In this document: one piece after another, positions 6,346-63,366 of the stretch | Numbering within the stretch: position 1 is the stretch's first letter | How the letters are laid out: every line of letters begins with the position of its first letter | Assembly (NCBI GenBank): GCA_964349555.1 | Contig: CAYGGK010000002.1 | Location: forward strand, 9,258-73,257 | DNA length: 64,000 bases | Source of the DNA: an uncultured Candidatus Saccharibacteria bacterium | GTDB taxonomy: Bacteria; Patescibacteriota; Minisyncoccia; Phycocordibacterales; Phycocordibacteraceae | Reading direction: 5' to 3' | Position numbers and translations under genes: made by a program | The notes under the pieces: generated by a model | The model's input: the letters and a program-made list of their open reading frames with translations, nothing else | What the model was told of the DNA's origin: nothing | Database searches by the model: none

Positions 6346-6798
6346 TTAGAATGGGATGTCCTCGGGATTAATCTCCTCGTCTGGATACTTAATCGACTCG
6401 TCATCCCTTCCGCCGGAGGCGGACCCGCCTTCGGCGGGCGGTTCCCCAACTCCTTGTCCGCCCCTCCCGCCATCGGCACCGAATTGGAAATTGTCCACGA
6501 CAATCTCGGTACGGTAATTTTTCTTTCCGCTCTCCTTATCGTCCCACGAGCGCGTCTGGATGCGCCCTTCAACAAAGATCCCGCGACCTTTTTTCATATA
6601 CTGCGCGATAACCTCGGCTGTCTTGCCGAATGCAACAATATTGTGGAACTCGGTCGCCTCTTGTTTTGCACCACTCTTATCCTTATAGGTACGGTTTGTC
6701 GCGATGCCGAAATTCGCGACACTGCCGCCAGACGGGAGCGCCTTCAGCTCCGGATCGCGGGTAAGGTTGCCATAGAGTAATACTTTGTTGAGGTACAT
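6346..6798 (-). CDS. ssb: single-stranded DNA-binding protein with Gly-rich acidic tail (tail carries an inserted palindromic element)
   Basis: MYLNKVLLYGNLTRDPELKALPSGGSVANFGIATNRTYKDKSG... OB fold; C-terminal DEEINPEDIPF tip; rpsF-ssb-rpsR synteny. Confidence 0.9.
   Translation of the reverse strand: MYLNKVLLYGNLTRDPELKALPSGGSVANFGIATNRTYKDKSGAKQEATEFHNIVAFGKTAEVIAQYMKKGRGIFVEGRIQTRSWDDKESGKKNYRTEIVVDNFQFGADGGRGGQGVGEPPAEGGSASGGRDDESIKYPDEEINPEDIPF
6410..6437. repeat. family-1 palindromic element inserted in-frame in the ssb tail (encodes PAEGGSASGGRD)
   Basis: CCGCCGGAGGCGG-AC-CCGCCTTCGGCGG; one arm mismatch. Confidence 0.85.
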
Positions 6799-8168: not shown

Positions 8169-9610
8169 AATCCTGCCTGCGCAGGCAGGCGCGGGAATAG
8201 GTTGTCCGGCTTTTTGTTTTCAAATACCGCCCTTTTTACCGCCTCGCACGTCGCCGGCATAAATGGGCTGAGGAGTATGGCTATCTGATAGAGCTCGGTA
8301 GCGAGCTCTCTGATGATAATACGTCCTTTTTCTACGTCCTCTTTTACAAGCTTGAAAGGTTCTTCGTGTGTAATGCGTTCATCGAGTCTTTGTATACGAC
8401 TCCAAACAAGATCCATCGCACGATTGAATTCAAACGCATCTATCATGTCCAAGTATTCTCGCGGAAACACGGGCTCTCCCGAGAGGATAACGGGATCTTC
8501 AAGATGAGTTTCGGCGAGCTTCATCACGCGCGCGACAAGGTTACCGAGGCCGTTCGTCAGATTTGCCGTGTACCACTCATCAAGGCGTTCCCAAGTGACG
8601 TCCGAGTCTTCCACCGGGTGGACGTGGCGCAGGAGTATATACCGTGTCGCGTCAGTGCCATATTTCTTCACGAGTTCGTAGGGACTGATAACATTGCCCA
8701 AAGACTTGCTCATCTTCTGCCCGCCACTCGTTATGAATCCGTGGTAAAAGACCGTGTCGGTTGTCTTACTGTCTGCCGACATCAGCATCGCTTGCCACAT
8801 AAGCGACTGAAATCGTACTTGGTCCTTTCCTGCTACCTGAAGCGTTGTTCCCTCTTCCCAAAACTTCTTGAAATCTCCTTGCTCGTCTTCGGGCCAACCG
8901 AGCGTGGAAATATAATTAGTGAGCGCATCAAACCAGACATACATCACCTGCGAATCATCATTCGGGACCGGAATGCCCCATGAGAGCCGTTTTTTCTCGC
9001 GCGAGATGCTGAAATCTTCAAGCCCACCTTTCACAAAGGCAATCGCCTCTTCTTTCCGCCATTCGGGGATGATGACACCGGGACGAGACAGGTATTCGAG
9101 CAGGCGATCATCATATTTCGAGAAGCGGAAGAAATAATTCTCTTCGGTTATCTCCTGAAGTTTCAGATTGGTGTGGGTGGTGCAATGATCGTCCGCTATT
9201 TCTTTCTCGGTTTTGAACGATTCGCATCCTACACAGTACACACCCGTATAGGCTTTCTTGTAGATGTCGCCCGCGATGTCGCACCGCCGCCACATTTCGG
9301 CCGCTGCCGCGTAGTGGCGCCGTTCTGTGGTGCGAATGAAAACATCGTTTGAGAGGTCAAGTGCGGTGCCGAGCTTTCGGAATTCGTCCGCATAGTGATC
9401 GACGTATGCATGCACGTCCTGTCCCGCTTTCTCTGCGGCTTCGTATATTTTCTGGCCGTGCTCGTCGGTACCAATCGAGAAAAAGACATCATTGCCCGCA
9501 AGCCGCCACGCGCGCGCGAGTGCATCTGCCTGAACGAATTCAAGCGCGTGCCCAAGGTGCGGATCCGCGTTCACATACGGGAGCGTCGTGGTGACGTAGC
9601 GCACACTCAT
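8165..9610 (-). CDS. metG: methionyl-tRNA synthetase (class I, no C-terminal tRNA-binding domain)
   Basis: PYVNADPHLGHALEFVQAD (HIGH region), KMSKSLGN, zinc knuckle CVGCESF. Confidence 0.9.
   Translation of the reverse strand: MSVRYVTTTLPYVNADPHLGHALEFVQADALARAWRLAGNDVFFSIGTDEHGQKIYEAAEKAGQDVHAYVDHYADEFRKLGTALDLSNDVFIRTTERRHYAAAAEMWRRCDIAGDIYKKAYTGVYCVGCESFKTEKEIADDHCTTHTNLKLQEITEENYFFRFSKYDDRLLEYLSRPGVIIPEWRKEEAIAFVKGGLEDFSISREKKRLSWGIPVPNDDSQVMYVWFDALTNYISTLGWPEDEQGDFKKFWEEGTTLQVAGKDQVRFQSLMWQAMLMSADSKTTDTVFYHGFITSGGQKMSKSLGNVISPYELVKKYGTDATRYILLRHVHPVEDSDVTWERLDEWYTANLTNGLGNLVARVMKLAETHLEDPVILSGEPVFPREYLDMIDAFEFNRAMDLVWSRIQRLDERITHEEPFKLVKEDVEKGRIIIRELATELYQIAILLSPFMPATCEAVKRAVFENKKPDNLFPRLPAQAGL
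8172..8189. repeat. 18-bp perfect palindrome CCTGCCTGCGCAGGCAGG (family 2) forming the last codons of metG (..LPAQAGL*) next to the tatD start
   Basis: Seen in sequence; identical copy at 62987..63004 in holA. Confidence 0.8.
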
Positions 9611-10720: not shown

Positions 10721-12115
10721 TTATTCAATGGCGGAGCGGATACGGGAGGCGACTTCGGGAATGGAGAGGCGCTCTTGTTCGCCTGAGTCACGGTGGCGGA
10801 GTGTGACGGTATCTTTTCCGCCGGAGGCGGACCCGCCTCCGGCGGGGAGTTCTCCCAACGTTTCAAAGTCTATGGTAATGCAGAAAGGCGTACCGATCTC
10901 GTCTTGGCGGCGGTAGCGTTTGCCGATGTTGCCGTTATCGTCCCATGCGATTGCAGGATGGACTTTCTTGAGCTCGGCGCGCACTTCCCTCGCCTTCGCG
11001 ACCAGCTCGGGCTTATTCTTCAACAAGGGCGAGACCATCGCTTTTATCGGCGCGACCTTAGGCGAGAGCGCGAGATACGTGCGGGTTTCTTCACCCATAG
11101 TGTCTTCGCGATACGCATCAACTAATACGGCGAGAAGCATTCGCCCTACGCCGACTGACGACTCTATCACGTATGGGATAATTCTTTCTTTTGTTTCTTC
11201 ATTAAAATAACTCAAATCCTGTCCGCTCGCTTTTGCGTGATTCGTCAAATCGAAGTCAGTTCTATTATGAGTACCCCAAAGCTCCTTAAAGCCCTGTGGA
11301 AACTTGAAATAAATATCGTGCGCAGCAGAGGCGTAATGGGCGCGTTCGTTCTCTGCATGCTCGTGCCACTGCAGATTCTCCTCGCGTACACCAAGCACAT
11401 CGGTCATAAAATTCCACGCAACGTTCCTCCACGTTTCGTAAGCGACGGTCTGTGTTTCTGAATTGATAAAATACTGCATTTCCATTTGCTCGAGCTCGCG
11501 AACACGAAATATGAAGTCGCGTGGTGCTATTTCATTTCTAAATGCTTTCCCTATCTGCGCGATACCAAACGGCAATGCAGGATGAATTGTATCAATAACA
11601 TTTTTAAAATTCGTAAAAATAGATCCCGCTGTTTCTGGACGCAAATAGGCGACAGAAGAATCGTCCTCAATAGGGCCAACCCACGTCTTCATCATCATAT
11701 TGAACGTGCGTGGTGGTGTAAGTGTTTTTTCACCACAGGTTGGACACGCCGCATCGGTAAGAAGGTTGGTCAATTCAGCGATATTTGTACTGTCAGTTCC
11801 AGCAAGATGGTCGGCACGAAGCCGTGCTCCACAATTCTTACAATCAACAAGAGGGTCGGTAAATCCTGCAACGTGCCCGCTCGCCTCCCACAATTTCGGG
11901 TTCTGAATGATGGCGCCGTCAACACCAAAAATATCGTCTCTCTCTTGCACTATTTTGCGCCACCACAATTGCTTTAGGTTGTTTGCCAATTCGACACCAT
12001 ACGGCCCATAATCCCAAAAGCCTGCTATGCCTCCGTATATTTCACTCGCGGGGAAGACAAACCCGCGGCGCTTGCAAAGCGAGACGATTTTTTCCATCAA
12101 CTGCGAGTCGGCCAT
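10721..12115 (-). CDS. glyQS: glycyl-tRNA synthetase (dimeric class II GlyQS type)
   Basis: MADSQLMEKIVSLCKRRGFVFPASEIYGGIAGFWDYGPYGVELANN... class II motifs; start at internal Met (12115), since the ORF-track extension has no homology and would overlap the upstream gene. Confidence 0.9.
   Translation of the reverse strand: MADSQLMEKIVSLCKRRGFVFPASEIYGGIAGFWDYGPYGVELANNLKQLWWRKIVQERDDIFGVDGAIIQNPKLWEASGHVAGFTDPLVDCKNCGARLRADHLAGTDSTNIAELTNLLTDAACPTCGEKTLTPPRTFNMMMKTWVGPIEDDSSVAYLRPETAGSIFTNFKNVIDTIHPALPFGIAQIGKAFRNEIAPRDFIFRVRELEQMEMQYFINSETQTVAYETWRNVAWNFMTDVLGVREENLQWHEHAENERAHYASAAHDIYFKFPQGFKELWGTHNRTDFDLTNHAKASGQDLSYFNEETKERIIPYVIESSVGVGRMLLAVLVDAYREDTMGEETRTYLALSPKVAPIKAMVSPLLKNKPELVAKAREVRAELKKVHPAIAWDDNGNIGKRYRRQDEIGTPFCITIDFETLGELPAGGGSASGGKDTVTLRHRDSGEQERLSIPEVASRIRSAIE
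10818..10845. repeat. family-1 28-bp palindromic element CCGCCGGAGGCGG-AC-CCGCCTCCGGCGG inserted in-frame in the glyQS C-terminal domain (encodes PAGGGSASGGKD)
   Basis: Perfect 13-bp inverted arms; near-identical copies at 6410, 50082 and 50627. Confidence 0.85.
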
Positions 12116-12125
12116 AAGACTTGGA

Positions 12126-14009
12126 TTATTGCACAATTGCCCTTGCGCTGGTATACCCGGGGTCCCCTTTCGTCTCTGTTGTTGATGGGCTTGCGGATGC
12201 TTGTATCTGCACCCCGGCAAAGCGGTCGTAGCCAGAGAATGAGAGCGCGCCGGTGAGCGTCGGCGTATCGCCTCTCTGAGAAGAAGAAGGGATGAGGGAA
12301 ATCTGAAATACTCCTTTTGCGGTCGCTCCTTGGGCGATATTGCCGACATTCCAAGTCACTGTGCGGGAGGCGCTGTCATACGAGAAAGAGCCGGCGCCAG
12401 CCGTTGCTCCAGTGTATGAGACGTAGCTCGGAAGCGTTGCCGAGACAACGCCGTCGGCAATCGTACTGCCAGTGTTGTGTGCACTCCATTCGACCGTGTA
12501 CGTCGTCGCTTGTCCGGAGCGTGGAGGAACGGGGCCGCTGTTACTCAAAGGTCCAGATGAGTAGAGGGAAGACGCGGAGAGCGCCACTACCGTAGCAACT
12601 TTTACTGTCTTGACTATAGAAGCACTTATCCGCTCCGGTACACTCGTCTGACCAACGCGAGTGCCAGACACGGAGGTGGTGAGCGTTATCGTCGGCGCGA
12701 CTCCGAGAGATCCTGCCGGTAGGGTTGAGAAGGTGAAAGAACCGATACCGGATGTGCCGGGAGCGAGGTTTGCGAGAGAGGGGTCGGTATCTCTGCTAAA
12801 CGTAATCGTACGATCTAGAGAGTGATAGAAGCCGTTTGTTGTTTCAATACTGTCGTAATCAATTGCAGAACCTGAAATGGTGACAACAATCGTGGCGTTC
12901 GTAACACTGGTGGGAAGCGTATTAACGTACGAGACCGTTACATTATGGTGATCCTTTGGAGTGATGGCGACGTTGGCCGCCGTATCGCCGTTGAGAGAGA
13001 GTGTTGTGGCGATGAACGGCGCCGTAATCAGCATTTTCGCCTCTTGAGTCATATATGCAACGACTGATGCTTGGTCGTCGGTCGTTTTTGAGGTCCCAAC
13101 GGTGAAGTGGAAAACGCGCTGTTCCCCGTCCTGTCCTACCAGAATCCCGGTGAGCGTTACTGTTTTACTCGCTCCGGGCGCCAAAGAGCCAAGGGAGAAG
13201 TTTGATCCGCTCATTGGTAAGGATGAGTCGGTTACCGAAAAGCCGAACGGCGAAACATAAGTGAGAACGACATCGTCGAGTGGCACGGTCGCATTTGAGC
13301 GAACGGTGAGCGTGAAGGTAAGTGGTTTCCCCGAGACGGTTTCTGAGAGCGTATTCACCGACACCGAGAGTGGCGCCGAAGAGACCGTAAGCGTATAAGA
13401 AATCTTTTTCACAAAAACGGAGTTGGAACCGGCCGTCTCGAAAGAAACGGACACGGGCAAAAGAAGCGTCTGCCCCGCTTCGCCGAAGACGACGGCTTTT
13501 ATTGACCTGGTTATCGCCTCGCCACTCGCGAGCTGACCCAACTCTTCCGTATAGCGCGGGTAGGCACTGCGCGTATCGTCCGCGTCCAGCGTACCCGGTG
13601 GAAAGCCAATCTCTATGATCGCATTTTCAACAGGGACCGGGTTTCTGTTTGTAATGGTAATGGAAAGCGGGACGGTATCACCAGCGGCAATAGTCGTCGG
13701 GCCCTGTATATCAATGGTAATTTTATCTACGGAGACGGCGTTGCCGCCAAAATAAAAGAAGTAACCGGCGGCGCCCAGCGATATGATAAAGAAAACAAAC
13801 GCGGTGATAAAAAATATGCCAGCGAGACGTACGTGTCGTTTGCCGCGATGCGGAATATCTTCAAGCGAATGATCCTCCCACGCATGCGCCAACTCTCTCT
13901 CATTAGAGTGAACAAGGGAGGAACGTTCGTGTGAAGAATCGTCCGGCTCATACAGCCGTTTGCGTGCCCTCTCGAGTGCCCCGATGTCGTCTTCTGATTT
14001 AGGCGGCAT
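12126..14009 (-). CDS. large membrane-anchored surface protein with repeated Ig-like/DUF11(CARDB)-like Ser/Thr-rich domains
   Basis: N-terminal cytoplasmic segment, single TM (IFFITAFVFFIISLGAAGYFFYF), then about 520 aa of repetitive S/T/V-rich beta-type sequence; typical of envelope proteins in reduced genomes. Confidence 0.45.
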   Translation of the reverse strand: MPPKSEDDIGALERARKRLYEPDDSSHERSSLVHSNERELAHAWEDHSLEDIPHRGKRHVRLAGIFFITAFVFFIISLGAAGYFFYFGGNAVSVDKITIDIQGPTTIAAGDTVPLSITITNRNPVPVENAIIEIGFPPGTLDADDTRSAYPRYTEELGQLASGEAITRSIKAVVFGEAGQTLLLPVSVSFETAGSNSVFVKKISYTLTVSSAPLSVSVNTLSETVSGKPLTFTLTVRSNATVPLDDVVLTYVSPFGFSVTDSSLPMSGSNFSLGSLAPGASKTVTLTGILVGQDGEQRVFHFTVGTSKTTDDQASVVAYMTQEAKMLITAPFIATTLSLNGDTAANVAITPKDHHNVTVSYVNTLPTSVTNATIVVTISGSAIDYDSIETTNGFYHSLDRTITFSRDTDPSLANLAPGTSGIGSFTFSTLPAGSLGVAPTITLTTSVSGTRVGQTSVPERISASIVKTVKVATVVALSASSLYSSGPLSNSGPVPPRSGQATTYTVEWSAHNTGSTIADGVVSATLPSYVSYTGATAGAGSFSYDSASRTVTWNVGNIAQGATAKGVFQISLIPSSSQRGDTPTLTGALSFSGYDRFAGVQIQASASPSTTETKGDPGYTSARAIVQ

Positions 14010-34987: not shown

Positions 34988-35118
34988 TACCACCATTTGA
35001 GCCGAACCCAGTCCTCAAGCCTGCTTTCCTCTATCTCTAAGGGAAAGCAGGCTTTTGAATTGTCGTGCGAGACAAGGCTGAGTTGCGGAACAGGCAAGAT
35101 GCTCGTACAATTTTCTCA

Positions 35119-36762
35119 ATGGAAAAAATGCCTTCTAAGGAGAACGGCGGAAAAGAATTGCTACTGCCAGTTAATAGTCACACAGAGCTTTTCAGGGAAT
35201 TTCCCCCAGTGCCACAAAACCTTACTACTCTAGACACTCCTTTTTTGAGTCCTTACAAAAGTGCAAAAGAAAAGTTGGATTACGAGCGCCGTTTGCCCAT
35301 AGAAATCTTGCCATTTGTGCGCACTTATTTTGCGCAGCATAAGGATGAGATGTTGAAATTGTGTGAGAACGAACCTATTTCAGAGTATCTTTCGCATATC
35401 AAGGAAGCATGGCAAAAACACATAGGGGCTAACGAGGCGATTGACTGTTTTTTGAACTACGAGACTAAGAATGTTTTTGGAGACTGGTCTCAGAAGGAAT
35501 GGGGAATGGCAAAGAGGCTTATAGTTGCGGCTTTCGAGACTGATCATCAGAAAACAATGTATTCGGGGGGAATTAAACATAAATTAGAGATAGAACGCAT
35601 AAGGCTTGGAGAAAAATACCGGACCAGCGGAATTCAGGATTTTGACACACTACTTATTTCACCCGCTGGCCTCACCTTTTACGAAGGCCGTGAACACAAT
35701 AATAAGAAGTTACATCTATCCATACTCAAGGGAGAACCTGATTTTGAATTGAAGAACGAAATAGTAAATCGCTATAATGGGGGTGACCAAAAATTGTTCG
35801 AGGAACGATTCAAGACTTTCAAGTTCTCATCGGATATTGAGAAGTTGGAGTCAGAGATACAGGTAATTGAAGAAAGGGTTCGTTCTCGGTCAGTGAAGAA
35901 GAATTATGCGTTAGTGGAGAGGCAGGAGCTAAAAGATTTTGATTCTCTGCTTTTCTTCGACAACACAACGGAGTACGAATATACATACTCACTTAAAGGA
36001 CTGCAAGATTTGTTTCTTCGCGAAGAACTTCTCAAGCGATTAAAGAGTTTTGGGCAGTTCCCTGCAGATACGTCGGTATATTCCTTATCAAAAGAAGATT
36101 TTGTATCAGCCATAGACGATAGATTATCTAGCATAGCTAGACACTCTTCGATTCGTCTGCGTCCATACCTTCAAACAATGGATACGTGCGGAACAGCGTG
36201 TATTATGTCCATCCTTAATCGAAAAGGCATACCGCTTACCAGAGATGAGGAAATGGCAATTTGGGAACGCGTAGGAAAGCCTTATAATTTTCCTGGTGGA
36301 CTTGCGACCGTTCTCCTCGAGCATGGTTTCCATGTTAAATACATCCAAAATCACCTGACACTTCTTCAAGCTGACAGCCTGGAATTTGAGTCAAAAGATC
36401 CAAACCTCTTAAGGGCCGCTCGGGAATATGTGGTTCTTCATGAAAAGGCAATCAAAAAGGGTTTGAATTATTCTATAGAAAGTTGGGACTTTGAAAAAGT
36501 GAAGGTCGAGATAAGTAGGGGCAACCCCTGCATTCTGTATATATATGTTTCTGAGACATATACCCATTGTGTCATTGCTCGAGGTATCAAGAACAACAGG
36601 CTAGAGATAATCGACCCTCTTGGAAATATTAAGTATATGAATGAGGAGCAATTGAACAAAAGAATCGATACCCCGATGGGACGAAGAATGTTAGTTGTCG
36701 AGAAACTACCAGATGACTTTTTTGAGAAATTGGATAAAGACCTTCAGGTTATTGGTTATTAA
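35119..36762 (+). CDS. large hypothetical protein with C-terminal papain-like C39_2-type cysteine peptidase domain
   Basis: DTCGTACIMSILNRKGIP (catalytic Cys) ... YTHCVIARG (His) in the C-terminal 180 aa; N-terminal about 370 aa unknown; low GC. Confidence 0.45.
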   Translation: MEKMPSKENGGKELLLPVNSHTELFREFPPVPQNLTTLDTPFLSPYKSAKEKLDYERRLPIEILPFVRTYFAQHKDEMLKLCENEPISEYLSHIKEAWQKHIGANEAIDCFLNYETKNVFGDWSQKEWGMAKRLIVAAFETDHQKTMYSGGIKHKLEIERIRLGEKYRTSGIQDFDTLLISPAGLTFYEGREHNNKKLHLSILKGEPDFELKNEIVNRYNGGDQKLFEERFKTFKFSSDIEKLESEIQVIEERVRSRSVKKNYALVERQELKDFDSLLFFDNTTEYEYTYSLKGLQDLFLREELLKRLKSFGQFPADTSVYSLSKEDFVSAIDDRLSSIARHSSIRLRPYLQTMDTCGTACIMSILNRKGIPLTRDEEMAIWERVGKPYNFPGGLATVLLEHGFHVKYIQNHLTLLQADSLEFESKDPNLLRAAREYVVLHEKAIKKGLNYSIESWDFEKVKVEISRGNPCILYIYVSETYTHCVIARGIKNNRLEIIDPLGNIKYMNEEQLNKRIDTPMGRRMLVVEKLPDDFFEKLDKDLQVIGY

Positions 36763-36775
36763 ATAATCGTACACA

Positions 36776-37462
36776 TCATTCAATCTCCTTGAGCGCTTCC
36801 ATTGTTACGTGGACTAACTCGATCACCTCCTCATCCTTTTTCGGAGAATGCCCCATCCCTTCTATTAAATGAAGCTTAGAATTCGAAAGCATGGTGTTGA
36901 GCGTTTCTGAATTTTCAATTGATACAGCATCATCACTCGTCCCATGCACTATATGAACGGGAATATCGATTTCTCGCAAGAAATTCTTTCCAAGGGTAAT
37001 TGATAGAAGTGGGTCAATATCAGAAAATGGCTTGGACTTCATCTCATTAAAGTTTCCTTCATCAGTTTCCGAAAATCCAATCGCAGGAGCCCACAATATC
37101 AATATATTAATACGTTTATCGTTTGCGGCAAGTAGCATCCCGCCGCCAAAACTTTTACCAATGCCGTATATGTCAGTATACCCCATCTCCAAAAGGGAGG
37201 ACACTGATTCATGTATTCTTTCAACTATTTTAGCGATACACATTTCTCCTAGATCAGTACTAGCGTTCCACACCTTAAGGCACTCAGAGTGAATACCTCC
37301 TTTATTTAACTGATCTTTTAGCATTTCATAGAGTGGTAACTGCTTTTCTGCATTTATGCCTGGAACGAAAAGAACTGCGCGGGTTTTTTTCTGCTTTGGT
37401 TTGGAGCTGGAAATAAATTTTGTATCTTCTAGTTTCATATTTCTAATTTTATCACTTTTCAA
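36776..37462 (-). CDS. alpha/beta hydrolase (dienelactone hydrolase-like)
   Basis: GxSxG nucleophile elbow GIGKSFGG, C-terminal His GMGHSP. Confidence 0.6.
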   Translation of the reverse strand: MKSDKIRNMKLEDTKFISSSKPKQKKTRAVLFVPGINAEKQLPLYEMLKDQLNKGGIHSECLKVWNASTDLGEMCIAKIVERIHESVSSLLEMGYTDIYGIGKSFGGGMLLAANDKRINILILWAPAIGFSETDEGNFNEMKSKPFSDIDPLLSITLGKNFLREIDIPVHIVHGTSDDAVSIENSETLNTMLSNSKLHLIEGMGHSPKKDEEVIELVHVTMEALKEIE

Positions 37463-37500
37463 CGAGCTATCGAGACGCTGTGTTTTCTTTGTTCGGGATG

Positions 37501-38218
37501 AATGGGGTCAGCCACCATTCTTTGGTCTACCAACTCTCCGTAGAGTTTGTTCCAACCCATGCTTCTTCACGATAGCATCCTGCCAGCGATCGGAACCGAA
37601 CGGGATACTCTTCGCTATCGAACGTTCGAGAGCCTTTTCTTCTGTTTGTACCTGCGGCTGATTCAGCCATGAGATGTAGTCATGTGGTACTGGAACTGGC
37701 CAAGAAGTGAGGAGTTTCTTTTGCTGTGGTGTTCCATGTTCCCGGCGCCACACACTCGACCAGCGCCATTGCTCTGCCTTTTTAACTAGGTTCGCTTTCT
37801 TCGCGTTTCGCTCGACATAGCGGACAAGGGTAAGGAAGTGTTTGTCTGTCTGACAGAGAAAGGATTTGTATCTGCCTTGGTAGAGGTGGCCCTGGCCAAC
37901 AGTATCTTTTGCAACGTGCCAACGTCTCGTATGTGTATTGGTGATCCAACCCATGAATAGGGAGAGGTCACCATCATTCCTGGGATAGAGGACTAGATGC
38001 CAGTGATTAGGCATGAGGCAGTACGCAAGGATGCGCATAGCAAATTTCTTTTCCGCTTCTTCAAGAATTTGCTCGAAGAGCGGGTAGTCTTTATCGGTAT
38101 CAAATATTTGGACGCGGGCATTTGCGCGGTTCAGGACGTGGTATACATGATCACCAACATCAGTGCGCTCAATGCGGGGCATGCATACAGAATATCATAA
38201 ATGGTGGCTGACCCCATT
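37501..38218. mobile_element. 718-bp IS200-like/REP-associated tyrosine transposase (RAYT) unit bounded by perfect 19-bp inverted REP-like repeats AATGGGGTCAGCCACCATT
   Basis: Left IR 37501..37519, right IR 38200..38218 (exact reverse complement); each IR is itself hairpin-forming (AATGG..CCATT). Confidence 0.75.
37508..38182 (-). CDS. REP-associated tyrosine transposase (Y1 transposase, PF01797-like)
   Basis: YHVLNRANARVQIF.., HxH motif CLMPNHWHLVL, catalytic-Tyr region LYQGRYKSF / YVERNAKKANLV...WRWSS. Confidence 0.75.
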   Translation of the reverse strand: MPRIERTDVGDHVYHVLNRANARVQIFDTDKDYPLFEQILEEAEKKFAMRILAYCLMPNHWHLVLYPRNDGDLSLFMGWITNTHTRRWHVAKDTVGQGHLYQGRYKSFLCQTDKHFLTLVRYVERNAKKANLVKKAEQWRWSSVWRREHGTPQQKKLLTSWPVPVPHDYISWLNQPQVQTEEKALERSIAKSIPFGSDRWQDAIVKKHGLEQTLRRVGRPKNGG

Positions 38219-38302
38219 ACATAATTACATTCATCTTGTGGAGATTTTGCTTCATGTATTCGCAAAATCCCTCACAAGGTCTTCGAGTCCTCTTCTGGCC
38301 AT

Positions 38303-38328
38303 TTAAAAACCGGCCTAAGCCGGTTTTC
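38303..38328 (-). terminator. hairpin terminator downstream of tRNA-Leu (AAAACCGGC-TTAG-GCCGGTTTT + T-run)
   Basis: Perfect 9-bp stem flanked by A/T runs. Confidence 0.6.
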
Positions 38329-38333
38329 TCATG

Positions 38334-38417
38334 TGCCCAGGAGAGGACTCGAACCTCCAAGCCCTTGCGGGCGCTACCACCTCAAGGTAGTACGTCTACC
38401 AATTTCGCCACCTGGGC
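38334..38417 (-). tRNA. tRNA-Leu (anticodon GAG), type II with long variable arm
   Basis: Manual fold: acceptor GCCCAGG/CCTGGGC, D-loop GAAATTGGTAGAC, anticodon loop TTGAGGT, T-loop TTCGAGT. Confidence 0.8.
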
Positions 38418-38426
38418 AAGAAAACA

Positions 38427-38948
38427 CTATACTACAACTTCTTCTTTTTTCTCTTCTGCCGTTTCTTCTTCTACAATCGGCTCTGTTTCTCCTACCTCGG
38501 CCTCTGGAATTATTTCCGCCTCCCCCGCAGGAGCGACTTCCTCGTCACTTTTCACATTCATCATACGCGCGTTACGCAACTGGCGGCGGACAGCCTTAGC
38601 CGCCTTCTCGCGGATGAAGTAGAGCTTCGCCCTGCGCACCGCAGAGCGCTTCACGATCTCAATAGAGTCGATGACCGGGGAGTAGAGCGGAAAGGTCTTC
38701 TCGACACCGACGCCGGAGAGCGTCGCACGCACGGTGAAGGTCCCTCCAGCCTCCCTCCCATGCTTAACCGCTAGGACTAATCCCTCGAAGGTCTGCTTTC
38801 GCGTGTTCTTAATTGTCTTCTCCTTCTTGTCGGTACCGCGACCTTTTTTAAGCTCAACGATGTTCTGTACGACGCGCACCGTGTCTCCCGGGCGTATCCC
38901 AAGCTTCGCGCGTCCTTCTATATTGACCGGAGTAATGACTCTCTGCAT
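38427..38948 (-). CDS. rplS: 50S ribosomal protein L19 with acidic C-terminal extension
   Basis: MQRVITPVNIEGRAKLGIRPGDTVRV... canonical L19 core; about 55-aa E-rich tail. Confidence 0.9.
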   Translation of the reverse strand: MQRVITPVNIEGRAKLGIRPGDTVRVVQNIVELKKGRGTDKKEKTIKNTRKQTFEGLVLAVKHGREAGGTFTVRATLSGVGVEKTFPLYSPVIDSIEIVKRSAVRRAKLYFIREKAAKAVRRQLRNARMMNVKSDEEVAPAGEAEIIPEAEVGETEPIVEEETAEEKKEEVVV

Positions 38949-43045: not shown

Positions 43046-43118
43046 GGGCGATTAGCTCAGTTGGTAGAGCAATGTCCTTACACGACAAAGGTCGCAGGTT
43101 CGAGCCCTGCATCGCCCA
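43046..43118 (+). tRNA. tRNA-Val (anticodon TAC)
   Basis: Manual fold: GGGCGAT acceptor, D-loop AGTTGGTA, anticodon loop CTTACAC, T-loop TTCGAGC. Confidence 0.8.
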
Positions 43119-43181
43119 CACAAGTAGCAGAACGGCTCATATACGCCGTATATGAGCCGTTCTGCTGATATAATTCCCGAG

Positions 43182-43265
43182 TGCCGCGGGGGAGACTCGA
43201 ACTCCCAATCCCTTGCGGGAACTAGCTCCTGAAGCTAGCGTGTCTACCAATTTCACCACCACGGC
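43182..43265 (-). tRNA. tRNA-Leu (anticodon CAG), type II
   Basis: Manual fold: acceptor GCCGTGG/CCGCGGC, anticodon loop TTCAGGA, long variable arm, T-loop TTCGAGT. Confidence 0.75.
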
Positions 43266-49986: not shown

Positions 49987-50422
49987 GGGCAATACGTGAA
50001 AGGTAACTGGTAAGAATAAGCGCGGCGGCAGAGGCATCGACGGCCTCGCGCCTTTTGGGCGCGCGTGTCTTTCTCTCTTTTCCACCGAAGGCGGACCCGC
50101 CCTCGGCGGTTGCAGGCGCGCGACGCGCCTGCGCACTCGTGAGCCCTTCCCACTCATAGAAGACTGGGACGCCGCACCGAGCCGCGACTTCTTCTCCGAG
50201 CTGTTTTGCCCCTTTCGCGGCAGGGTTTTCCTTTCCCGCATAATCAAGCGAGTTGCCGACCACAAGGGCACGCACGTCCTCTTTCGCTATAATTGCGCAA
50301 ATGTGTTCAACTGCCTTGGGAGTGTTCGGGACGACCAAGTGAGGAAACCCCATCGTGCCCGTCTCATCAGAGAGCGCGAGACCAATCTTCTTGGTGCCGT
50401 AGTCAATGCCAAGATGTCGCAT
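49979..50422 (-). CDS. ruvX: YqgF/RuvX-like Holliday-junction resolvase / pre-16S rRNA nuclease
   Basis: MRHLGIDYGTKKIGLALSDETG.. RNase H-like N-terminus; carries the family-1 insert PATAEGGSAFGGKE. Confidence 0.8.
   Translation of the reverse strand: MRHLGIDYGTKKIGLALSDETGTMGFPHLVVPNTPKAVEHICAIIAKEDVRALVVGNSLDYAGKENPAAKGAKQLGEEVAARCGVPVFYEWEGLTSAQARRAPATAEGGSAFGGKERKTRAPKRREAVDASAAALILTSYLSRIAHE
50082..50109. repeat. family-1 palindromic element (degenerate copy CCACCGAAGGCGG-AC-CCGCCCTCGGCGG) in-frame in ruvX
   Basis: Two arm mismatches relative to a perfect palindrome. Confidence 0.7.
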
Positions 50423-50605: not shown

Positions 50606-50712
50606 TCGCGGAATCTAGAGCTTTGCCCGCCAGAGGCGGGTCCGCCTCTGGCGGAAAAACTAGCGGGCCAAAAGCCCTTGTGGGTTCGAGTCCCACCCCT
50701 TCCGCAGATGAT
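50606..50712 (+). other. tRNA-like element (5' GCGGAAT..., 3' GTGGGTTCGAGTCCCAC-CCCTTCCGCA) disrupted by or containing a family-1 palindrome at 50627..50654
   Basis: Good T-arm and 3' acceptor-like strand, but no canonical D/anticodon arms; the palindrome plus flanking CTAG..CTAG occupies the central region. Confidence 0.4.
50627..50654. repeat. family-1 palindromic element, perfect copy CCGCCAGAGGCGG-GT-CCGCCTCTGGCGG inside the tRNA-like locus
   Basis: 13-bp perfect arms; central dinucleotide GT (reverse orientation relative to plus-strand copies at 6410/10818/50082). Confidence 0.85.
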
Positions 50713-62697: not shown

Positions 62698-63366
62698 TTA
62701 TATTGAAAGAGCGAAACGCTCGAGGGAAAGGGAGAGGTCGAGGTCGCCACGGCGAGAGGACTGGAGGAGAGAAATAAGAGAGAGAGAAAGCGCGCGAGAT
62801 TCATTCGGCTTCCAGGCGCGACTTCCTTTTTCCATCAGGTCGCGTGCCTTCCAGTGGAGGAGGCCGTGGAGCATCTCGGGCGCGTCACCCTCCCGAAGCG
62901 CGCGGTTGATTTCAAGCCAGAGTTTCTCGCGTGAACGGTTCGCGAGTGCATTTACAAGATTGGCGTTGAATCCTCTTTCGGTTGTCCCTGCCTGCGCAGG
63001 CAGGTCGTATTTGTATTCAACTTTTGCCTTCGCGGCGAGCTTCTTCGCCTTCGCCAGCGCAAGCTTAGGAGCAAGAATAATGATCGCATTGTCAGACGCG
63101 GCGAGAGTGTCAAGATGTTCTTCAAGAATACTTTTCGTTTCTTCGTCCTCCTCATTTTTTTGAAACGGGTCGTCAATAAGTATAAGGAGCCGTTTAACGA
63201 AGAGCCCACCTGAGAGCGCCGCGTCTTCAAACGCGGCGCTCGACAACTCCTCGCGCGCGAGACGCACGTAGGCGAGGTTTGGCTCTTTCGCGCGCGCGCT
63301 CGCGACCCACTCAAATGCTTTCGCTCGTGTCTTTGAGACATCGGAGCCGTGAAATAAGTAGATCAT
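62698..63366 (-). CDS. holA: DNA polymerase III delta subunit (HolA), short form
   Basis: MIYLFHGSDVSKTRAKAF.. typical HolA N-terminus; carries a family-2 palindrome (DLPAQAGT). Confidence 0.65.
   Translation of the reverse strand: MIYLFHGSDVSKTRAKAFEWVASARAKEPNLAYVRLAREELSSAAFEDAALSGGLFVKRLLILIDDPFQKNEEDEETKSILEEHLDTLAASDNAIIILAPKLALAKAKKLAAKAKVEYKYDLPAQAGTTERGFNANLVNALANRSREKLWLEINRALREGDAPEMLHGLLHWKARDLMEKGSRAWKPNESRALSLSLISLLQSSRRGDLDLSLSLERFALSI
62987..63004. repeat. family-2 18-bp perfect palindrome CCTGCCTGCGCAGGCAGG in-frame in holA
   Basis: Identical to 8172..8189. Confidence 0.8.

Follow-up and report, generated by a model that had tools for sequence, protein, structure and literature searches.

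What is the small gene that lies between two perfect inverted repeats at positions 37501..38218 of this DNA, and what could the repeats be for? The DNA is a 64,000-nt stretch of contig CAYGGK010000002.1 from an uncultured Candidatus Saccharibacteria bacterium (hereafter the window; all coordinates are positions in it), and the gene encodes a 224-aa protein of the transposase type. We find it likely that the region is a TIRtron, that is, a TIRYT gene with two copies of its 19-bp recognition sequence, inverted to each other, at its ends, because full-length alignment with a listed TIRYT, RB2408 of Rhodopirellula baltica, gives 46% identity (E 4e-76), and because the repeat contains the motif GGGGWSAS.

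TIRtrons were described by Di Nocera, De Gregorio and Rocco (2013, BMC Genomics 14:522, PMC3733652) as genes resembling those of the REP-associated tyrosine transposases (RAYTs) that are flanked by terminal inverted repeats (TIRs) and not by repetitive extragenic palindromes (REPs) of the GTAG type; their enzymes were named TIRYTs. According to the accessible text of that paper, many TIRs lie at similar distances from the gene and the majority of those listed share the motif GGGGWSAS, while in some genomes moderately abundant TIR families occur as singles, dimers or clusters. Most TIRYTs were placed in TnpA_Y1 subclass 2.1 by Quentin, Siguier, Chandler and Fichant (2018, PMC6006769).

The transposase gene and its two arms

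The whole unit occupies 718 bp on the minus strand (37501..38218) and consists, in window order, of an arm, the gene, a spacer and a second arm. The repeats, which the first-pass annotation of this DNA had described as perfect, were confirmed by the sequence and by a repeat search (19 nt, 100%): AATGGGGTCAGCCACCATT occupies 37501-37519, and at 38200-38218 all 19 positions read as its reverse complement, AATGGTGGCTGACCCCATT. Read on the gene strand, the upstream (5′) arm (38200..38218) is AATGGGGTCAGCCACCATT and the downstream (3′) arm (37501..37519) is AATGGTGGCTGACCCCATT. Within the arm, GGGGTCAG (37504-37511, with the reverse complement at 38208-38215) fits the published TIR motif. Counted from the ATG, the upstream arm spans −36 to −18, as in relatives, which leaves a 17-nt spacer (38183..38199) that begins with TATGATAT, a putative promoter −10-like box; a simple promoter and terminator scan called no promoter for the gene. 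The gene itself (37508..38182) runs into the downstream arm, the first 12 nt of which encode its last codons, Asn-Gly-Gly-stop. At up to three mismatches, these two arms are the only copies of the 19-mer in the window, and two or more matches occurred in 0 of 100 dinucleotide-preserving shuffles. An Rfam search of 37200-38500 returned tRNA and no other family, and the window holds no paralogue of the protein.

The protein matches Pfam Y1_Tnp (2.6e-17), and its single-tyrosine (Y1), histidine-hydrophobic-histidine (HUH) domain spans residues 11-126. H60-W61-H62 (coded at 37997-38005) and Y122 (37817-37819) align with the HUH motif and the catalytic tyrosine of E. coli TnpA_REP (4ER8), the sole solved relative found by sequence, and H60, H62 and Y122 are invariant in an alignment of 44 relatives. 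The HxH motif and the catalytic tyrosine that had been noted in the 224-aa protein at first pass are borne out by the Pfam match and this alignment. Among the NCBIfam models, REP_Tyr_transpos was the best, at 66.6 bits, which falls short of the curated equivalog cut-off of 80 (NF047646), and the IS200 equivalog NF033573 gave 15.9 bits vs a cut-off of 55. A structural model built with AlphaFold2 on the 44 relatives (predicted local distance difference test 87.7, predicted template modelling score 0.86) found its best PDB match in 4ER8 (E 4.9e-8), followed by the TnpA structures of ISDra2, IS200 and IS608. The scores of 66.6 bits for REP_Tyr_transpos and 15.9 for IS200, together with 4ER8 as the best structural match, place this Y1/HUH enzyme in the RAYT-like (Y...N) branch and not with IS200. 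The first-pass designation as a RAYT type therefore holds for a RAYT-like Y1/HUH enzyme with cognate inverted repeats, but it does not extend to a canonical RAYT, in view of the score below the cut-off and the absence of a GT[AG]G foot in the repeat. An IS200 TnpA accompanied by TnpB, which the same annotation had named as a refuting outcome, was not encountered, as the IS200 model scored low and no TnpB-like gene was found among the neighbours of the element.

Beyond the catalytic domain, the protein carries a C-terminal extension of ~80 aa, which in the model is helical over residues ~140-214 and has no counterpart in the 165-residue E. coli enzyme. Pfam recognised no helix-turn-helix (HTH) family in it even at E ≤ 1 (no Bac_DnaA_C, HTH_23 or HTH_28). 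At the terminus, the 44-sequence alignment shows an invariant Gly-Arg-Pro between basic residues, and close relatives have the ...GRPK(K)NGG C-terminus in common with the window protein. This Gly-Arg-Pro with its basic flanks resembles the core of an AT-hook.

Does the element belong among the TIRtrons? RB2408 and Gbem_2474 of G. bemidjiensis (42% identity, E 1e-63) are both TIRYTs in the protein alignment of Additional file 5 of PMC3733652, and with Daud_2153 of D. audaxviator they are the nearest of the listed TIRYTs. On the other hand, BLASTP against E. coli RayT gave no similarity (E 7.3). The window protein has YHVLNRAN, CLMPNHWH, GHLYQGRYKSF, RYVERNA, PFG..W and the C-terminal GRPK/R in common with the TIRYTs, and the unusual NHWH and YVERNA motifs in common with RB2408. 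The locus thus combines the features by which a TIRYT is told: the HUH motif with its tyrosine, homology to listed TIRYTs over RAYTs, inverted repeats without GTAG, and GGGGWSAS. As in the TIRtrons described in the accessible text, the inverted GGGGWSAS repeats lie at a fixed distance from the gene, and extra copies occur in some genomes singly, as dimers or in clusters. The element differs from them in several respects. Its host belongs to the Patescibacteria, or candidate phyla radiation (CPR), and no such host appears in the accessible text or alignment of PMC3733652; its downstream arm overlaps the stop codon; its 19-mer is retained across relatives with saturated synonymous sites; and miniatures and sharp half-arms are documented here, neither of which was found in the accessible text of that paper.

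The window protein shares with TnpA_Y1 subclass 2.1, which corresponds to Bertels group 1, its length class (median 238 aa), an NH-aromatic-H HuH motif, a proximal W.WSS motif in the tail, a conserved C-terminal extension, a low copy number and the lack of canonical REPs. The subclass motifs NHVH/NH[YF]H, W[EQ]/FQ and YIELNP/Y[IV]HLNP follow a pattern similar to NHWH, YQ and YVERNA of the window protein, with none of them exact. In contrast, the extension of subclass 2.1 is HTH-like (Bac_DnaA_C, HTH_23, HTH_28), whereas the window tail has no Pfam HTH, and no REP-like structures are reported for the subclass in PMC6006769, whereas the arms here are short imperfect palindromes. As classed here, the element is an additional TIRtron/TIRYT, from a Patescibacteria/CPR lineage, of a class that has been known since 2013 and little studied. 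A literature search for the 19-mer returned no relevant paper, and one for Patescibacteria combined with Y1 or miniature inverted-repeat transposable elements returned nothing specific.

The repeat among relatives and its dispersed copies

Is the 19-bp repeat a lasting partner of the gene? More than 7950 relatives were found by protein, the nearest being 69–79% identical and ~224–226 aa long; of these nearest ones, most of those with a named source bear the label Patescibacteria. Among the 85 unique homologous loci with usable flanks (50–79% amino acid identity), 72 have an inverted repeat at equivalent offsets, counted if it scored ≥12 at the equivalent positions, and the 19-bp repeat is therefore not due to chance. 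For example, the gene has AAATGGGGTCAGCCAC(C/T)ATT on both sides, at unchanged offsets, in L005, where it lies beside grpE/dnaK, and in L010, where it lies beside ychF; the genomic context of the gene varies among relatives. The arm itself differs by clade, being AATGGGGTCAGCCACCATT in the closest clade, AAAAGGTGTCAGGAACCTTTT in the clade of 50–58% identity and AAACGGGGACAGCCACCGTTT in others, and the core G(T/A)CAG is kept in all variants.

Ten relatives found by protein alone (68–77% amino acid identity) are only 22–39% identical at four-fold degenerate sites, which means that synonymous sites are saturated. In at least 6 of these 10, the 19-mer is nevertheless kept in both arms, a single mismatch in one of the two being the largest departure. 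The retention of the 19-mer while synonymous sites are saturated indicates that the arms are under strong selection on primary sequence, and because the upstream arm is non-coding, its conservation is not a coding constraint. Furthermore, a TTGACA box directly follows the upstream arm in the clade of 50–55% identity, and in four other close relatives (L018, L110, L126 and L156), as in the window, TATGATAT comes next to the arm at this place. With TTGACA or TATGATAT directly after it, the upstream arm lies at or upstream of the promoter and would thus be a DNA element and not a part of the mRNA.

We scanned one genome per species for AATGGGGTCAGCCACYATT and obtained at least 119 blocks of up to 8 kb; the counts below refer to the matches listed in these blocks. 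Going by their record labels, Patescibacteria lineages (Saccharibacteria, Kaiserbacteria, Paceibacterota and others) account for 93 of the 119, Elusimicrobia for nine and Omnitrophota for four, with a few others; the few labels from other phyla may be binning errors. The source genome of the window is not among the blocks, and no further copy of the TIR family occurs in the window, but exact copies of the 19-mer are present in many other genomes; the first-pass annotation had named the absence of extragenic copies as evidence against its proposal. At least 198 copies (up to two mismatches) were classed, of which 44 are arms of a full gene, 26 adjoin a gene fragment, 35 are without a gene and have a partner copy, 40 are solos without a gene at least 900 nt from the block edge, and 53 lie too near the block edge to be decided. 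Tandem arms of the same orientation also occur without any gene, as do solos, and inverted doublets measure 43–392 bp between their outer ends, some with pieces of the gene left inside.

An arm-bounded segment without a full gene comes from one Candidatus Liptonbacteria metagenome-assembled genome (MAG; MHLB01), two contigs of which carry an identical 179-bp element in unrelated flanks (L098 6814-6992 and L203 5988-6166). Of the gene, this miniature keeps only the last ~48 codons; its two copies are 100% identical, and the identity stops within ~3 nt of the outer ends of the arms. An identical element in unrelated flanks is the pattern expected of a mobilised miniature derivative. Similarly, two contigs of one Elusimicrobia MAG (L116 and L166) have a gene-less, arm-bounded cargo in common. 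Of 55 loci identified through protein similarity, 34 have exactly two arms and 21 carry additional arms, close inverted doublets among them, in the vicinity of the gene. Viral contigs gave 0 matches to the 19-mer when scanned, and a phage vector is therefore not indicated.

On their outer sides, arms and solos (L097-L215) are enriched for partial copies in the same orientation: GGGGTCA was found in 44 of 174 flanks and its reverse complement in 0 of 174. The 48 extra upstream copies comprise 13 complete arms, 30 that break off precisely behind GGGGTCA or GGGGTCAG, and 5 with an end in between. The truncated left half-arms, AAATGGGGTCA(G), have the orientation of the full arm and typically begin 12–16 nt before it (e.g., L176, L141, L203 and L187), and degenerate AATGG/CCATT stutters are also common on the outer flanks. 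The two arms of the window show no stutter. Because the partial copies are bimodal, being either complete or ended after GGGGTCA or GGGGTCAG, they suggest that breaking and joining take place at one discrete position in the predicted loop of the arm. Their source could be either an enzyme that cuts in the loop or an insertion that prefers the loop of an existing arm.

Surroundings of the element and other palindromes

The element lies between tRNA-Leu(GAG) (38333-38417) and a low-GC stretch, with a G+C content of 0.39–0.42 across ~35000-37500 vs 0.50–0.58 past 38250, in agreement with the first-pass placement at the edge of a low-GC island beside tRNA-Leu. The neighbours of the TIRYT gene are the tRNA-Leu gene and those for L19, an alpha/beta hydrolase, a C39-peptidase-like protein and a pseudouridine synthase. 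Encoded in the low-GC stretch are the hydrolase, of 220 aa, and a protein of 565 aa with a Peptidase_C39-like region at its C-terminus. The stretch may be an island adjoining the tRNA gene; neither an integrase nor a direct repeat of the tRNA end was found for it.

At 38282-38301, on the plus strand, there is a 20-nt inverted copy, with two mismatches, of the tRNA-Leu(GAG) 3′ end (38334-38353, minus strand), 32 nt past the tRNA gene. A G+C-rich terminator-like hairpin (38305-38326, AAAACCGGCCTAAGCCGGTTTT) stands between the tRNA 3′ end and this inverted copy, and an imperfect 16–17 bp hairpin (38235-38278, CTTGTGGAGATTTTGC ... GCAAAATCCCTCACAAG, with an 11-nt loop) stands between the copy and the upstream arm. 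The fragment is not accompanied by a tRNA 5′ half, and ARAGORN makes no call at this place; integration or rearrangement at the tRNA may have left it behind. We considered whether the element splits a tRNA gene and rejected this, as only the 20-nt fragment resembling the tRNA 3′ end is present, without a matching 5′ half on the other side.

Three independent assemblies of the same organism from other samples (L001, L002 and L004) break ~180 nt upstream of the gene, inside tRNA-Leu, and several contigs bearing the 19-mer end inside arms with overlaps of k-mer length (L152/L182, L163/L180 and L160/L190). These contig ends are consistent with repeat-induced assembly breaks. When an empty site or another context was sought through the exact neighbour proteins (the hydrolase and L19), every contig had the same arrangement or was broken in the tRNA, and this comparison is therefore uninformative on insertion polymorphism.

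Could the enzyme also mobilise the in-gene palindromes of the window, as had been suggested at first pass? We rejected this candidate. These palindromes (the CCGCCGGAGGCGGACCCGCCTCCGGCGG family) are real: they are G+C-rich, have the form CCGCC[GA]GAGGCGGACCCGCCTC[CT]GGCGG and lie at 1417-1452, 6405-6440, 10813-10848, 50077-50112 and 50622-50657, four of the five inside open reading frames of at least 100 aa (e.g., 689-2992 and 10721-12349). However, they have no sequence in common with the arms, and what goes with the gene in 72 of the 85 loci is a relative of the 19-mer with a core of the GTCAG type. Other palindromes occur in the window as well. A perfect 20-bp palindrome (43126-43166, AGCAGAACGGCTCATATACG / CGTATATGAGCCGTTCTGCT, with arms 1 nt apart) is located between tRNA-Val (43046-43119) and tRNA-Leu(CAG) (43181-43265), and the perfect 18-bp palindrome CCTGCCTGCGCAGGCAGG occurs twice, 55 kb apart (8172-8189 and 62987-63004).

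A possible mechanism and its alternatives

Could the arms be recognised as hairpins? The first-pass annotation had described each repeat as hairpin-forming (AATGG...CCATT). Each arm can indeed fold, as a 5+2 bp bulged hairpin, but weakly, at −3.7 to −5.8 kcal/mol as DNA (z −0.9 to −3.4). Across 117 aligned arms, stem columns 4–10 with 18–24 are paired in 80.0% of cells vs 74.7% in shuffles, and the observed value was reached in 0 of 500; one stem position covaries, with T-A in 36 arms, A-T in 29, C-G in 7 and G-C in 4. The pairing and the covariation lend modest support to a hairpin.

The catalytic residues, the family membership, the selection on the arms and the presence of miniature and solo copies at unrelated sites elsewhere are directly established, and on this ground we propose how the system might work. 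The enzyme would recognise the arm through its conserved asymmetric core GGGGTCAG, flanked by short complementary A/T-rich segments (AATGG/CCATT) that may form a small hairpin on single-stranded DNA. The DNA would be nicked and rejoined by an HUH-bound metal and Tyr122, in the manner of the structural relatives of the enzyme, with the cut possibly after GGGGTCA/G, and segments bounded by arms, whether the gene unit, gene-less miniatures or single arms, would be moved or copied. The arms would thus be both the recognition sites of the enzyme and the ends of the mobile unit. Since the upstream arm abuts the promoter, the enzyme bound there probably also represses its own gene. We infer the single-strand hairpin recognition, the chemistry, the cut position and the autoregulation. 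The copy in the window is intact but solitary, and for this reason it may either be quiescent or have been retained because it serves the host.

Several observations weigh against a mobile TIRtron of this kind. The protein, the product of a mostly single-copy gene, has been under long-term purifying selection, as indicated by 70–79% amino acid identity with saturated synonymous sites, which is expected of a domesticated gene more than of a selfish insertion sequence. As to the mobility of the window copy, there are only two arms in 64 kb, and no empty site or second copy was found. GTCAG is on one strand at the first end and on the other strand at the second, an arrangement that is hard to reconcile with the one-strand excision of IS608 unless extra assumptions are made. 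The hairpin is weak, the covarying pair is mismatched in 39 of the 117 arms, and the self-complementarity of the arm could be explained equally well by a symmetric double-stranded binding site. Finally, no experiments on any TIRYT were found in the literature searched, where the class is seldom named.

Some of these observations would suit an immobile domesticated gene, the arms of which are operator or binding sites for autoregulation or host DNA processing and the dispersed copies of which in other genomes are decay products. The gene is single-copy in the window and under strong purifying selection, promoter elements, TTGACA or TATGATAT, stand immediately inside its upstream arm, and the 34 of 55 loci with exactly two arms come from an unbiased set. 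We still consider this explanation rather improbable, because the 179-bp element is identical at two unrelated sites of one genome, L116 and L166 share gene-less arm-bounded cargo, 40 of the listed copies are solos far from any gene, and the genomic context differs among relatives. A canonical RAYT/REPtron, in which a domesticated TnpA_REP is flanked by REPs that spread as REPINs through its own genome, appears less probable again. It would agree with the 4ER8 fold, in which the HUH motif and tyrosine align, with REP_Tyr_transpos as the best NCBIfam model, with inverted, hairpin-capable repeats that bracket the gene and are also found elsewhere in genomes, and with the extra copies or close inverted doublets beside 21 of 55 relatives. 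However, the protein scores below the cut-off, has no BLASTP similarity to E. coli RayT, has YVERNA and not Y...NP as its Y motif, and bears a C-terminal extension that the E. coli enzyme lacks. The arm AATGGGGTCAGCCACCATT, for its part, is without the GT[AG]G at the hairpin foot that defines REPs, and its hairpin is far shorter and weaker. There is no third arm in the 64 kb and no high-copy population, so that the REPIN population considered at first pass was not seen in the window.

Two further explanations are highly improbable. An ordinary IS200/IS605 insertion sequence, with a TnpA acting on subterminal hairpins, is suggested by the name of the Pfam family (‘Transposase IS200 like’), by the HUH/Y1 fold with its significant matches to the TnpA of IS608 and ISDra2, and by the hairpin-defined ends and non-autonomous derivatives mobilised in trans that are known from that family. 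In contrast, the IS200 equivalog score is far below its cut-off, the Y motif ends in N and not Q, the protein has the ~80-aa extension, TnpB is missing, the gene is single-copy in the window and strongly conserved, and the ends are identical inverted repeats and not distinct left and right hairpins on one strand. An RNA role, in which the 5′ and 3′ ends of the mRNA pair as a 19-bp duplex that controls stability or translation, is equally hard to credit. In its favour, the two arms enclose the coding sequence and are complementary without a mismatch, but in the 50–55% clade the TTGACA −35 box stands at the inner edge of the upstream arm, which places the arm upstream of the transcription start, and we rejected the end-pairing model on this promoter placement in relatives. 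Solo and tandem same-orientation arms without a gene, conservation of primary sequence beyond pairing and the lack of an Rfam family also count against it.

The TIRtron reading could be carried further, to a 19-mer and enzyme that form an active replicator system across several phyla, similar to REPIN/RAYT, in tiny Patescibacteria genomes, with the cut made inside the hairpin loop after GGGGTCA/G. This is a tentative extension, which we think unlikely as it stands. The same doubt attaches to its mechanistic part, in which the loop would be cut as by Rep-type HUH proteins and not beside the hairpin as by IS608 TnpA or TnpA_REP, and the half-arms would be footprints of the cut.

What does the element mean for this family of enzymes and its hosts? 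The TIRYT-type family is large, with 588 clusters at E ≤ 1e-30 and 9591 at E ≤ 1e-10 among the 1.84 billion cluster representatives searched. The system offers a clean substrate, consisting of one invariant 19-mer, a 224-aa enzyme, natural miniatures and a candidate break point, and the rules of recognition and cleavage in this HUH branch are therefore directly testable. In addition, it makes plain that a conserved transposase-plus-repeat element is present in the streamlined genomes of Patescibacteria.

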